Positions 58,353 to 63,035 of a stretch of DNA of 64,000 nt are shown here, piece after piece (the stretch's first letter is position 1; every line of letters begins with the position of its first letter). The translations under genes were made by a program, and so were the position numbers. The notes below the pieces were generated by a model. That model was not told where the DNA came from, did no database searches, and saw only the letters and a list, made by a program, of their open reading frames with translations. The stretch is from NCBI RefSeq assembly GCF_055900595.2, contig NZ_CM148325.1. The stretch is one strand, 5' to 3'.

Positions 58353-61300
58353 ATGAAATTTATGAACAGGACCAGTCCCCATTATTGTCGTCGCTCAGTA
58401 CTTTCCTTACTGATATCTGCCTTGATATATGCTCCGCCCGGGATGGCGGCCTTTACCTCTAATGTTATTGGTGTGGTAAACGATGAGACTGTAGATGGTA
58501 GCCAAAAAGTAGATGAACGAGGTACAACAAATAACACTCATATTATCAACCACGGTTATCAGGATGTTTATGGCGGGGTATCTAATGGAAGTATTATTGA
58601 ATCTGGTGGCCGTCAATATGTATCAGCCAATGGTACTCATCAGGGGCAGGCCAATAATACAGTCATTAACGGTGGCAGCCAGACAATTCTGGACGGGGGA
58701 ATTTCCACAGGGACGATAATCCAGAGTGGCAGTCAGTATGTTTATGCAGGTGGTACCAGTAATGCAACAACGATAATAAGCGGTCGTTCAACAGTAATGG
58801 GGGGAACTGCGAATGGAACAATAATTAATGGTGGGAGCCAGTCAGTATCGAGTCAGGGGCGTGTTGACGGTACGACGATAAATATGTCCGGGCATCAGGA
58901 GATTACGCAAGGAAGTCTGGCAACGAACACAACAATAGATGGGGGGTGGCAGTATGTGGACTCAAGCAGTGTAGAAAATACTACCATTAAGAATGGAGGC
59001 GAGCAAAGAACAGTTAAGAGCCATGCGCTGAACACCACAATAGATGGTGGTCTACAGGTTGTCGATTCAAGTACCGCAGAAATAACCACCATTAAGAGTG
59101 GAGGAACGCAACAATTAAATAACAGCCAGGCTATGTTCACCACGATTGAAGGCGGAACTCAGTCTATGAATAGTAAGTCAACGGCAAAAAATACTCAGAT
59201 CTATTCTGGTGGTACGCAAATTGTTGATAACACCAGCACCTCGGATGTTATTGAAATTTATTCCGGTGGCGTGCTTGATGTTAGAGGTGGTATGGCAACA
59301 AATGTTACTCAGCACGATGGCGCGGCTTTAAAAGCAATGACTGACTGGTCGACGGTGAGCGGTACGAATAGTGAAGGTGCATTCTCTATTCACAATAACG
59401 TGGCAGACAATGTGTTGCTGGAAAACGGTGGCCATTTAGACGTATATGGTTCGGCAAACAAGACGATTATTAAAGATAAAGGAACAATGTCAGTTTTAGC
59501 GAATGCTAAAGCTGATGCGACCCGAATAGATAATGGCGGGGTTATGGATGTTGCCGGAAACGCGACCAATACCATAATTAATGGTGGCACACAGAATATA
59601 AATAATCATGGTATTGCCACGGGAACCAATATCAACAGCGGAACACAAAATATCAAGAGCGGCGGGAAAGCTGACACGACAAATATCTCCTCCGGGAGCC
59701 GGCAGGTTGTTGAGAAAGATGGTACGGCAACTGGCAGCAATATTAGCACCGGAGGCTCGCTGATTGTCTATACCGGTGGTATCGCACATGGGGTTAACCA
59801 GGAGACGGGCAGTGCTTTAGTTGCCAACACGGGCGCAGGGACTGATATTGAAGGATACAACAAGCTCTCTCACTTCACTATTACCGGAGGGGAGGCTAAT
59901 TATGTTGTGCTGGAAAATACCGGCGAACTGACGGTAGTGGCTAAAACCACGGCGAAAAATACTACCGTTGATGCCGGCGGTAAGCTGATTGTCCAGAAGG
60001 AGGCTAAAACAGATACCACCAGACTTAATAATGGTGGCGTTCTGGAGGTTCAGGACGGTGGTGAGGCTAAGCATGTTGAGCAACAATCCGGCGGCGCATT
60101 AATTGCTTCCACGACTTCCGGAACACTTATCGAAGGAACCAACAGTTATGGTGATGCTTTCTACATCAGGAATTCAGAAGCTAAAAATGTAGTGCTGGAA
60201 AACGCTGGCTCATTAACAGTCGTTACTGGTTCCCGGGCAGTTGATACGATTATTAATGCCAACGGCAAAATGGATGTTTATGGAAAAGATGTTGGCACTG
60301 TACTCAATAGTGCGGGCACCCAAACAATATATGCCAGTGCCACTTCTGATAAAGCAAATATCAAAGGTGGCAAGCAAACGGTATATGGTTTAGCCACTGA
60401 GGCAAATATCGAAAGTGGTGAACAAATTGTTGATGGTGGGTCAACAGATAAAACGCACATCAAAGGCGGCACGCAAACCGTTCAGAATTATGGTAAGGCG
60501 ATCAATACCGATATCGTCTCTGGCCTGCAACAAATTATGGCAAACGGGACAGCGGAAGGTTCCATTATTAATGGCGGTTCACAGGTAGTTAATGAGGGCG
60601 GTCTGGCTGAAAACTCGGTACTTAATGACGGCGGCACACTCGATGTGCGGGAGAAAGGCAGCGCTACGGGGATACAGCAGAGTAGCCAGGGCGCGCTGGT
60701 GGCAACCACCAGGGCGACGCGGGTCACAGGGACACGCGCTGATGGCGTCGCGTTCAGCATCGAGCAGGATGCGGCGAACAATATCCTGCTGGCAAATGGC
60801 GGCGTGTTAACCGTGGAGTCAGACACCACTTCCGCCAAAACACAGGTCAATGCGGGCGGACGGGAGATCGTCAAAACAAAAGCCACTGCGACTGGCACGA
60901 TGCTTACCGGCGGTGAACAAATCGTCGAGGGTGTGGCGAATGAGACAACGATTAACGACGGCGGAATACAAACAGTTTCGGCTAACGGTGAGGCAGTAAA
61001 AACAACGATTAATGAAGGCGGTACGCTGACAGTCAACGATAATGGCAAAGCGACAGATATCATCCAGAACAGCGGTGCCGCTCTCCAGACGAGCACGGCT
61101 AACGGTATTGAAATCAGCGGTACTCACCAGTATGGCACCTTTTCCATTGCCGGAAATTTAGCGACCAATGTGCTGCTGGAAAATGGCGGTAATTTATTGG
61201 TATTAGCAGGTACCGAAGCTCGCGATTCCACGGTTGGCAACGGTGGGGCAATGCAAAACCTGGGTCAGGACTTCGCCACAAAGGTTAATTCCGGTGGGCA

Positions 61301-63035
61301 ATATACCCTTGGTCGGTCAAAAGATGAGTTTCAGGCTCTGGCCCGGGCAGAAGATCTACAGGTCGCTGGCGGGACGGCAATCGTCTACGCAGGTACGCTG
61401 GCGGATGCATCGGTCAGTGGCGCGACAGGAAGCCTGTCGTTAATGACGCCACGGGATAATGTTACGCCAGTTAAACTTGAAGGGGGGGTCCGGATTACCG
61501 ATAGCGCGACATTAACTATCGGAAATGGCGTCGATACGACGCTTGCCGACCTGACGGCTGCCAGCCGGGGCAGTGTCTGGCTTAACAGCAATAATTCCTG
61601 TGCAGGCACCAGCAACTGCGAATATAGAGTAAACAGTTTGCTCCTCAACGACGGTGATGTTTATTTATCAGCACAAACAGCAGCGCCTGCCACAACTAAC
61701 GGTATCTACAATACGCTGACCACCAGTGAACTTTCCGGCAGCGGTAATTTCTACCTGCATACCAACGTTGCAGGCTCCCGGGGCGATCAACTGGTCGTCA
61801 ACAACAACGCCACTGGCAATTTTAAAATCTTTGTTCAGGATACCGGCGTCAGCCCTCAGTCTGACGACGCGATGACGCTGGTGAAAACAGGGGGAGGGGA
61901 TGCTTCGTTTACGCTGGGTAATACCGGCGGTTTCGTTGATCTTGGGACCTATGAGTATGTCCTGAAAAGCGACGGCAACAGCAACTGGAACCTGACCAAT
62001 GATGTCAAACCCAACCCGGACCCCAACCCAAATCCGAAACCGGATCCAAAACCAGACCCAAAACCGGATCCGAAACCAGACCCGACTCCCGATCCAACGC
62101 CGACACCCGTCCCGGAGAAACGCATCACGCCTTCTACGGCAGCCGTACTCAATATGGCAGCAACATTACCGTTGGTCTTTGATGCTGAGCTAAACAGTAT
62201 TCGCGAGCGGTTGAACATAATGAAAGCGAGTCCACACAACAATAATGTCTGGGGGACGACGTATAACACCCGTAATAATGTCACCACCGATGCGGGTGCC
62301 GGGTTTGAGCAGACGCTGACCGGAATGACGGTGGGGATCGATAGCCGTAATGGTATTCCTGAGGGGATTGCGACGCTGGGCGCTTTTATGGGTTATTCCC
62401 ATTCACATATCGGTTTTGATCGTGGAGGACATGGCAGTGTGGGCAGTTATTCTCTGGGGGGCTATGTCAGCTGGGAACATGAAAGTGGTTTCTATCTGGA
62501 CGGTATCGTGAAGCTGAACCGCTTTGAAAGTAACGTAGCCGGTAAAATGAGCAGCGGTGGAGCCGCCAACGGCAGTTATCGCAGCAACGGGCTGGGCGGT
62601 CACATTGAAACCGGGATGCGATTTACCGATGGTAACTGGAACCTGACGCCGTATGCATCGTTAACGGGGTTCACCGCTGACAACCCCGAATATCATTTAT
62701 CCAATGGTATGGAATCGAAATCAGTCGATACCCGCAGTATATATCGTGAACTGGGCGCAACGCTGAGTTACAACATGCGTCTGGGGAACGGCATGGAAGT
62801 TGAGCCGTGGCTGAAGGCGGCTGTGCGCAAAGAATTTGTCGATGATAACCGGGTGAAAGTGAATAATGACGGTAATTTTGTCAATGATTTGTCGGGCAGA
62901 CGTGGAATATACCAGGCAGGTATTAAAGCCTCATTCAGCAGTTCGTTAAGCGGGCATCTCGGGGTGGGGTATAGCCATGGTGCCGGTGTGGAATCGCCAT
63001 GGAACGCGGTGGCTGGTGCGAACTGGTCGTTCTGA
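58353..63035 (+). CDS. ypjA: AIDA-I-type autotransporter adhesin (repetitive passenger, Pro-rich linker, C-terminal beta-barrel ending in W-S-F)
   Basis: Track ORF 58233-63035; probable start MKFMNRTSPHYCRRSVLSLLISALIYAPPGMA (signal peptide) at 58353; degenerate ~19-aa repeats; PNPDPNPNPKPDPKPDPKPDPKPDPTP linker; terminal ...AGANWSF. Confidence 0.88.
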   Translation: MKFMNRTSPHYCRRSVLSLLISALIYAPPGMAAFTSNVIGVVNDETVDGSQKVDERGTTNNTHIINHGYQDVYGGVSNGSIIESGGRQYVSANGTHQGQANNTVINGGSQTILDGGISTGTIIQSGSQYVYAGGTSNATTIISGRSTVMGGTANGTIINGGSQSVSSQGRVDGTTINMSGHQEITQGSLATNTTIDGGWQYVDSSSVENTTIKNGGEQRTVKSHALNTTIDGGLQVVDSSTAEITTIKSGGTQQLNNSQAMFTTIEGGTQSMNSKSTAKNTQIYSGGTQIVDNTSTSDVIEIYSGGVLDVRGGMATNVTQHDGAALKAMTDWSTVSGTNSEGAFSIHNNVADNVLLENGGHLDVYGSANKTIIKDKGTMSVLANAKADATRIDNGGVMDVAGNATNTIINGGTQNINNHGIATGTNINSGTQNIKSGGKADTTNISSGSRQVVEKDGTATGSNISTGGSLIVYTGGIAHGVNQETGSALVANTGAGTDIEGYNKLSHFTITGGEANYVVLENTGELTVVAKTTAKNTTVDAGGKLIVQKEAKTDTTRLNNGGVLEVQDGGEAKHVEQQSGGALIASTTSGTLIEGTNSYGDAFYIRNSEAKNVVLENAGSLTVVTGSRAVDTIINANGKMDVYGKDVGTVLNSAGTQTIYASATSDKANIKGGKQTVYGLATEANIESGEQIVDGGSTDKTHIKGGTQTVQNYGKAINTDIVSGLQQIMANGTAEGSIINGGSQVVNEGGLAENSVLNDGGTLDVREKGSATGIQQSSQGALVATTRATRVTGTRADGVAFSIEQDAANNILLANGGVLTVESDTTSAKTQVNAGGREIVKTKATATGTMLTGGEQIVEGVANETTINDGGIQTVSANGEAVKTTINEGGTLTVNDNGKATDIIQNSGAALQTSTANGIEISGTHQYGTFSIAGNLATNVLLENGGNLLVLAGTEARDSTVGNGGAMQNLGQDFATKVNSGGQYTLGRSKDEFQALARAEDLQVAGGTAIVYAGTLADASVSGATGSLSLMTPRDNVTPVKLEGGVRITDSATLTIGNGVDTTLADLTAASRGSVWLNSNNSCAGTSNCEYRVNSLLLNDGDVYLSAQTAAPATTNGIYNTLTTSELSGSGNFYLHTNVAGSRGDQLVVNNNATGNFKIFVQDTGVSPQSDDAMTLVKTGGGDASFTLGNTGGFVDLGTYEYVLKSDGNSNWNLTNDVKPNPDPNPNPKPDPKPDPKPDPKPDPTPDPTPTPVPEKRITPSTAAVLNMAATLPLVFDAELNSIRERLNIMKASPHNNNVWGTTYNTRNNVTTDAGAGFEQTLTGMTVGIDSRNGIPEGIATLGAFMGYSHSHIGFDRGGHGSVGSYSLGGYVSWEHESGFYLDGIVKLNRFESNVAGKMSSGGAANGSYRSNGLGGHIETGMRFTDGNWNLTPYASLTGFTADNPEYHLSNGMESKSVDTRSIYRELGATLSYNMRLGNGMEVEPWLKAAVRKEFVDDNRVKVNNDGNFVNDLSGRRGIYQAGIKASFSSSLSGHLGVGYSHGAGVESPWNAVAGANWSF

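Follow-up and report, generated by a model that had tools for sequence, protein, structure and literature searches.

The 64,000-nucleotide (nt) stretch of Escherichia coli DNA analysed here (hereafter the window; contig NZ_CM148325.1 of RefSeq assembly GCF_055900595.2) carries near its end a long plus-strand gene for a repeat-rich autotransporter. The question raised by this locus is whether its repeats make it a contingency locus, hypermutable by slippage, or whether it is a known adhesin gene whose length forms are slow allelic variants. An original prediction, made from the sequence, had described a large autotransporter with degenerate tandem repeats and a proline-rich linker coded by near-perfect DNA repeats, prone to slipped-strand or recombinational length variation that could alter adhesin length or antigenicity. 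We are highly confident that the gene is E. coli ypjA (ehaD in O157:H7), whose product belongs, as a classical (type Va) autotransporter adhesin, to the AIDA-I/Ag43/TibA group, that it is present here as an intact, rare mosaic allele, and that its length differences reflect slow in-frame change.

An intact ypjA/ehaD gene at its conserved position

The plus-strand open reading frame (ORF) 58233..63035 is uninterrupted in the ORF list, without stops or frameshifts, and holds passenger and translocator in one polypeptide. The gene had been proposed to start at ATG 58353. This codon is in frame, but ATG 58362 (MNRTSP...) is the better start, because a Shine-Dalgarno-like AGAGG precedes it by 9 nt, whereas no spacing at all (0 nt) separates this motif from ATG 58353. 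The RefSeq ypjA coding sequence in syntenic genomes starts at the same ATG (MNRTSP).

58362..63035, plus strand: ypjA/ehaD coding sequence, 1557 codons plus stop (ORF list, RefSeq start, 92.6-99.9% amino acid identity to annotated YpjA/EhaD)
58348..58352, plus strand: Shine-Dalgarno-like AGAGG, preceding ATG 58362 by 9 nt (read from the sequence)

In thousands of complete E. coli genomes, the region matches a gene annotated "ypjA: adhesin-like autotransporter YpjA/EhaD", and at least 80% of it was found in 2429 of the 5426 complete E. coli genomes. At the amino acid (aa) level, the product is 99.9% identical to YpjA of strain AST85, 98.0% to that of 2017-02-2CC, 95.1% to that of 1190, 92.9% to EhaD of EDL933 and 92.6% to YpjA of K-12. 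When the whole stretch 58000-63300 was used as query, no match at 99% identity or more was found among the complete genomes searched.

The gene also occupies the conserved position, between ileY/ypjCB and ssrA, that characterizes the YpjA/EhaD orthologue group. The gene order is ileY transfer RNA (tRNA; 55155), a YpjCB-family ORF (56055-57425), a recombinase fragment, a 30-aa ORF, ypjA, ssrA and smpB, and the same order is annotated in strains 1190, NRZ105019 and JSWP021. The ssrA transfer-messenger RNA (tmRNA), at 63196-63557 on the minus strand, lies 160 nt past the ypjA stop with no integrated element in between, whereas an island separates ypjA from ssrA in K-12, in EDL933 and in all strains whose allele is closest to this one (AST85 and others). 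The 58 kb upstream are common E. coli backbone DNA, whose collinearity with AST85 extends to the single base and includes the tRNA positions. Since the gene is the orthologue, at a conserved position, of K-12 ypjA and O157:H7 ehaD, it is already known: gene and family have been described, and a 99.9% identical allele is already in RefSeq.

Domain organization of the product

The features of the protein, from N- to C-terminus, are as follows.

58362..58451, plus strand: predicted Sec signal peptide, MNRTSPHYCRRSVLSLLISALIYAPPGMAA (basic n-region, hydrophobic core, small-residue -3/-1 motif; read by eye from the translation)
58452..61628, plus strand: passenger beta-helix of degenerate 17-19-aa rungs, AIDA repeats (Pfam, NCBIfam, autocorrelation, model)
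59310..59447, plus strand: interspersed module of about 47 aa, copy 1 (pairwise comparison, DNA repeat family D4, dip in model confidence)
59799..59939, plus strand: the same module, copy 2
60081..60224, plus strand: the same module, copy 3
60678..60818, plus strand: the same module, copy 4
61065..61205, plus strand: the same module, copy 5
61629..61997, plus strand: pertactin-like domain (autochaperone region), C-terminal end of the passenger (Pfam PF03212, E=5.4e-45)
62001..62114, plus strand: 38-aa Pro-X spacer, DVKPNPDPNPNPKPDPKPDPKPDPKPDPTPDPTPTPVP, coded by an imperfect 6/12/24-nt DNA repeat (Tandem Repeats Finder, TRF; repeat family D2; codon listing)
62184..63032, plus strand: translocator, comprising the inter-domain linker and a 12-stranded outer-membrane beta-barrel, ending ...NWSF

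Cleavage of the signal peptide would be expected after MAA. The passenger that follows is about 1060 aa long, and its periodicity was measured by BLOSUM autocorrelation against 100 shuffles. The strongest peaks were found at shifts of 18 (z=8.7), 19 (6.6) and 17 (4.1) residues, with harmonics at 35-37 and 53-54. In agreement with this period, the Pfam AIDA family (PF16168) matched 11 stretches (E=4.7e-140), the NCBIfam strand-loop-strand repeat TIGR04415 ("O_hepto_targRPT") matched 13, and a self-built hidden Markov model (HMM) found 23 rungs of the NTxIxGGxQxV type arranged in four blocks. The passenger is thus indeed made of many degenerate repeats of about 19 residues, as had been predicted. 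The rung blocks are interrupted by five copies, at aa 317, 480, 574, 773 and 902, of a module with the consensus Q..GAAL.A.T...I.G.N..G.F.I....N.LLEN.G.L.V, which are 39-55% identical to each other in pairwise comparison. A 202-aa ORF lying antisense to the passenger repeats, at 60488-61096 on the minus strand, probably arises only because the coding strand is repetitive and richer in G+C.

An AlphaFold2 model of aa 31-1215, built from an 8-row alignment, is entirely beta and forms a continuous rod with a mean predicted local distance difference test score (pLDDT) of 77.6; pLDDT exceeds 90 over residues ~40-250 and dips at the five interspersed modules. Foldseek searches of this model against the PDB returned Ag43 (7KO9, 7KOH, 7KOB, 4KH3) and TibA (4Q1Q) as top matches with probability 1.00, and sequence searches of the PDB also matched Ag43 and TibA, with E-values of 1e-27 to 1e-33 to solved structures. 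The passenger is therefore modelled as a beta-helix resembling those of Ag43 and TibA. At its C-terminal end, aa 1036-1213 match pertactin (1DAB/2IOU) and IgA1 protease in the PDB sequence search. The beta-barrel is matched by Pfam PF03797 (E=2.6e-45) and TIGR01414 (E=1.7e-97), and aa 1275-1557 align with the BrkA translocator 3QQ2 (E=3e-23), Vag8 (7AKV) also being matched. The strong match to the autotransporter beta-domain bears out the prediction of a large AIDA-type autotransporter with a proline-rich spacer and a barrel.

The spacer repeat is diverged at the DNA level and its length appears to vary slowly

The Pro-X linker was found essentially where it had been placed (about 62007-62113). 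However, its DNA is not the near-perfect repeat that had been claimed. TRF reports periods of 12 and 24 nt with only 74-77% matches, the linker copies are 72-78% identical to each other, or 64-78% when compared as 36-nt copies, and the KPDP units are spelled with varied synonymous codons (AAACCG GATCCA AAACCA GACCCA ...). Passenger repeats are similarly diverged, with 60-72% DNA identity, and exact direct repeats within the 4.67-kb gene reach at most 14 nt. Near-perfect tandem DNA repeats, expected of simple-sequence contingency loci, are thus lacking from this gene.

Repeat number nevertheless differs between strains, as had been anticipated. The spacer is 38 aa long here, 40 aa in K-12, 42 aa in EDL933 and JSWP021, and 32 aa in KMi029, and a 35-aa passenger unit, described below, is present or absent. 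E. coli as a whole thus shows at least two length forms of the passenger and four of the spacer, with all length changes in frame. For the spacer, we surveyed an even sample of 60 of the 2525 matching records. The same 321-nt query spanned 303, 321, 327 or 333 nt in these records, the differences always being multiples of 6. All sampled O157:H7 records had 333 nt (+12 nt), and all K-12 derivatives had 327 nt (+6 nt). The spacer length classes therefore look fixed within lineages, and repeat-number variation among close relatives, expected of a contingency locus, was not seen in the 60-record sample.

A rare N-terminal allele with an extra passenger unit

By comparing the gene with its relatives in an alignment of eight orthologues, we found that divergence is concentrated near the N-terminus.

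58542..59261, plus strand: hypervariable N-terminal passenger segment, aa 61-300 (alignment, substitution rates, genome search)
58925..59029, plus strand: tandem unit of 105 nt (35 aa, about two rungs), first copy (repeat family D5)
59030..59134, plus strand: the 105-nt tandem unit, second copy (MAFFT places the gap of the common alleles here)

Over aa 61-300, identity to the K-12, EDL933, 1190, NRZ105019 and JSWP021 alleles is 52-73% aa per 60-column block, whereas downstream of about aa 420 the blocks are mostly 92-100% identical to common alleles; in K-12 YpjA, block identity falls to 85% at the Pro-X spacer. Taken as a whole, the gene outside the first ~240 passenger residues has 95-100% identity to common alleles. 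Substitution rates follow the same division. In aa 61-300, synonymous divergence (dS) is 0.37-0.45 and the ratio of nonsynonymous to synonymous divergence (dN/dS) is 0.38-0.53, as opposed to a dS of 0.01-0.12 and a dN/dS that is mostly about 0.1 in the passenger body and barrel (in comparison with K-12 and EDL933, 0.08-0.16 for aa 420-1215 plus barrel). Of the 5426 complete E. coli genomes searched, no more than 17 hold the N-terminal segment with an nt identity of 95% or above, 12 of them reaching 99% or above. Given the concentration of amino acid divergence and high dS in aa 61-300, we take this segment to be old and to have been recombined into the gene, under relaxed or diversifying constraint but with no overall dN/dS above 1.

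Within this segment, the 105-nt unit is duplicated in the present allele, in AST85 and in 2017-02-2CC, and single in K-12, EDL933, 1190, NRZ105019 and JSWP021. Consistently, common alleles span 616 nt in the genome search where the query has 721 nt. The two copies are only 70% identical to each other, so this duplication is old as well. An amino acid search with the N-terminal 307 aa returned 19 short fragment proteins of at most 77% identity; it missed the known 99.9% match and is therefore uninformative about the distribution of the allele outside E. coli.

Together, the diverged repeats, the length classes that look lineage-fixed and the position of the extra unit in an anciently diverged segment point to a slow allelic polymorphism rather than to demonstrated hypermutability. 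The best explanation of the length differences is that repeat units were duplicated or deleted long ago and that alleles exchanged segments by homologous recombination, rather than that slipped-strand mispairing is still going on in this allele, and the proposed slippage on near-perfect repeats is not supported here. What the rare N-terminal allele does is more speculative. It is conceivable, though we regard it as rather doubtful, that this allele, with its anciently diverged tip, additional two-rung unit and raised dN/dS, represents a distinct binding or self-recognition specificity class under diversifying or balancing selection, much as Ag43 subclasses differ in aggregation, and that the spacer length classes (32-42 aa, 90 in the paralogue described next) tune projection past O-antigen or capsule.

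A paralogue at the ycgV locus has a strongly expanded spacer

One 477-nt spacer match, in a gene annotated "ypjA" in strain ETEC4075, looked at first like an expanded orthologue. We rejected this assignment, as the gene lies between minE and ymgJ and is thus a paralogue at the ycgV locus (NZ_CP122652.1 2959372-2962842; intact, 1156 aa). With ypjA it has in common the upstream small ORF and 5' end, at 85-93% nt identity, as well as the C-terminal ~2400 nt, at 93.5-97%. It differs in its locus (ymgJ-minE), in the absence of two internal passenger blocks that include most of the variable region, and in a near-perfect (NP)n spacer of 90 aa. This spacer contains about 37 Asn-Pro dipeptides and is coded by an array in which a 12-nt unit recurs 18.8 times with 94% matches, which looks like a real slippage-type expansion within the ypjA gene family. 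As this array shows, uniform codons allow the Pro-X spacer to grow by slippage, and it stands in clear contrast to the scrambled codons of the present gene. We also considered this paralogue as donor of the N-terminal segment and discarded it, because it matches gene nt 1-359, 1102-1694 and 2259-4674 and is without most of the variable region.

In most genomes, the ycgV locus holds only a ~345-nt autotransporter remnant and the shared upstream region. The stretch 58007-58770, which covers the ypjA upstream DNA, the small ORF and the first ~400 nt of ypjA, is duplicated at ymgJ-minE with 91-93% identity in nearly every E. coli genome. Its small ORF (30 aa, 58178-58270) is annotated "ATPase" or "hypothetical". 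On sequence grounds, a leader or regulatory region common to the ypjA and ycgV loci is possible. An Rfam search of 55000-64000 returned only tRNA and tmRNA, with no leader RNA element.

Flanking DNA

The YpjCB-family ORF upstream (56055-57425, plus strand, possibly from 55995) is intact, scores 912 bits with NF050179 and lies in DNA of 33-36% G+C; ypjCB is split or has an internal stop in strains 1190 and AST85. Between it and ypjA, a fragment of an invertase-like recombinase gene (~57749-57913, plus strand) is annotated in all syntenic genomes, which suggests that an old island once lay between ileY and ssrA, with ypjCB and ypjA as its remains. We considered whether this fragment marks an invertible promoter, but only a 16-nt inverted repeat of 81% identity and a short palindrome were found in 57400-58400, and the idea was dropped. 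G+C content is 32-40% over 52000-58000 (amylase-like gene, ileY, ypjCB) and rises within ypjA from 43% at the 5' end to 52-54% at the 3' end, a profile that fits a horizontally acquired mosaic region. Elsewhere in the window, ARAGORN called a minus-strand tRNA-Arg(tcg) at 18828-18899, overlapping the plus-strand tRNA-Arg(acg) at 18808-18884 in the serV-argV cluster. This call is probably an antisense artefact, because the AST85 annotation has no more than one Ser and three Arg tRNAs there.

Comparison with known autotransporters

YpjA of K-12 (b2647) and EhaD of EDL933 share with the present protein the locus, gene order, domain architecture and start codon, with 92.6-92.9% aa identity. The present allele differs from them in aa 61-300 (only 52-73% identical), in the extra 35-aa unit, in its 38-aa spacer (40 aa in K-12, 42 in EDL933) and in having ssrA directly downstream. 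With Ag43, TibA and AIDA-I, it shares a three-stranded right-handed beta-helix of ~19-aa AIDA repeats, a pertactin-like autochaperone and a type Va barrel. In contrast to them, the YpjA passenger is about twice as long and contains the five 47-aa modules, its scores are well below the Ag43 and AIDA-I equivalog cut-offs, and no heptosyltransferase gene adjoins it. Pertactin of Bordetella has a homologous pertactin domain and short Pro-rich repeats, R1 and R2, whose copy number also differs between alleles (PMC8931430). However, R1 forms a loop on the helix and R2 lies ahead of the cleavage site, whereas the Pro-X tract of ypjA lies between autochaperone and translocator, where it looks like a spacer.

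By analogy with the established type Va pathway, Sec would export the protein to the periplasm, BAM would insert the barrel, and the passenger would be threaded out C-terminus first. Folding would then start at the pertactin-like autochaperone and produce a rod that has roughly 50-60 rungs and, at 4.8 Å per rung, a length of about 25 nm, and which the extended Pro-X spacer may hold off the membrane. As to function, YpjA, YcgV and YfaL promote adhesion and biofilm formation when expressed, according to Roux 2005 as cited in PMC3796261. Reviews citing Roux 2005 and Wells 2008 attribute an adhesion or biofilm phenotype to YpjA/EhaD overexpression with both the K-12 and O157 alleles (PMC9289746, PMC3796261, PMC4076661, PMC12547504), and EhaD is listed among the autotransporters of Shiga toxin-producing E. 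coli that are linked to biofilm (PMC4076661, PMC12547504). A 2022 review groups YpjA with Ag43, TibA and AIDA-I, while describing its mechanism as unknown and its structure as unpublished (PMC9289746).

Weighing the alternatives

Several points count against our assignment or against parts of it. The RefSeq product name of the rare allele is only "AIDA repeat-containing protein" (gene=ypjA) and not "YpjA/EhaD", and no family-specific HMM reached its cut-off, Ag43 NF033177 scoring 352 bits and AIDA-I NF033176 275 bits against an NCBIfam equivalog cut-off of 1200 bits for both. Signal peptide and cleavage site were recognized by eye alone, and the lineage stability of the spacer classes comes from a 60-row sample and not from a phylogeny. 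In addition, a simple sigma-70 scan found no plus-strand promoter-like site upstream, totals being no different from those of shuffles, and with upstream DNA this low in G+C the gene may be silent under many conditions. The last two observations also fit the idea that ypjA is a cryptic or decaying remnant of the old ileY-ssrA island, intact by chance, silenced and without contribution in the present strain. In line with such decay, fewer than half of the complete genomes keep at least 80% of the gene (2429/5426), a recombinase fragment adjoins it in DNA that is low in G+C, and many broken copies exist, with insertions of IS2, ISVsa5 and IS5, a frameshifted and truncated copy in EC18 and a truncated one in Z0117EC0005. 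Yet the 1557-codon ORF is free of stops and frameshifts, most of the gene is under purifying selection (dN/dS about 0.1), the start codon has a good context, and the reviews cited above (PMC9289746, PMC12547504, PMC3796261) report a biofilm phenotype upon expression. A decaying cryptic gene is thus possible at the population level, but we find it unlikely as a description of the present copy.

Alternatively, the repeats could be hypermutable by slipped-strand mispairing or intragenic recombination, with frequent changes of length or antigenicity within a strain. The four spacer lengths among orthologues (32, 38, 40 or 42 aa), the 90-aa spacer array of the ETEC4075 paralogue, which is a genuine slippage-type expansion, the loss of two internal passenger blocks in that same paralogue and the variable R1 and R2 numbers of pertactin (PMC8931430) all speak for such a contingency locus. 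Against it, the linker copies are no more than 72-78% identical and use varied synonymous codons, the passenger repeats are only 60-72% identical with no exact repeat beyond 14 nt, the length differences, always multiples of 6 nt, seem to be fixed in each lineage, and the 70% identity between the 35-aa units marks their duplication as old; we therefore consider it very unlikely for this gene. Slow in-frame change of an intact YpjA/EhaD adhesin accounts better for the same length forms. Such an adhesin could still be a self-associating autotransporter (SAAT) in the strict AIDA-I/TibA sense, with O-heptosylated 19-aa repeats, head-to-tail self-association and aggregation. TIGR04415, a known heptosylation target repeat, matches 13 stretches of the passenger, its closest solved folds are Ag43 and the hyper-glycosylated TibA, and the 2022 review puts YpjA in the same phylogenetic group as SAATs (PMC9289746). 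However, the gene neighbours are ypjCB, the recombinase fragment, the 30-aa ORF and ssrA, and we found no Aah/TibC-type heptosyltransferase gene adjoining ypjA or in the about 50-58 kb of upstream DNA syntenic with AST85. The Ag43 and AIDA-I equivalog scores are far below their cut-offs, and the same review calls the mechanism of YpjA unknown and its structure unpublished. We regard a glycosylated SAAT in this strict sense as rather unlikely.

Significance

Given that gene and family were already described, the identification itself adds little weight beyond annotation. The combination of a hypervariable tip with several length forms, however, means that tools scoring the presence or absence of adhesins, as well as naming by the Prokaryotic Genome Annotation Pipeline (PGAP), can miss or mislabel the rare allele. 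The locus also illustrates that a repeat whose peptide sequence looks perfect may, as DNA, be a poor substrate for slippage, the KPDP repeat being written here in varied synonymous codons. The paralogue at the ycgV locus shows that, with uniform codons, great expansion of the same spacer is possible.

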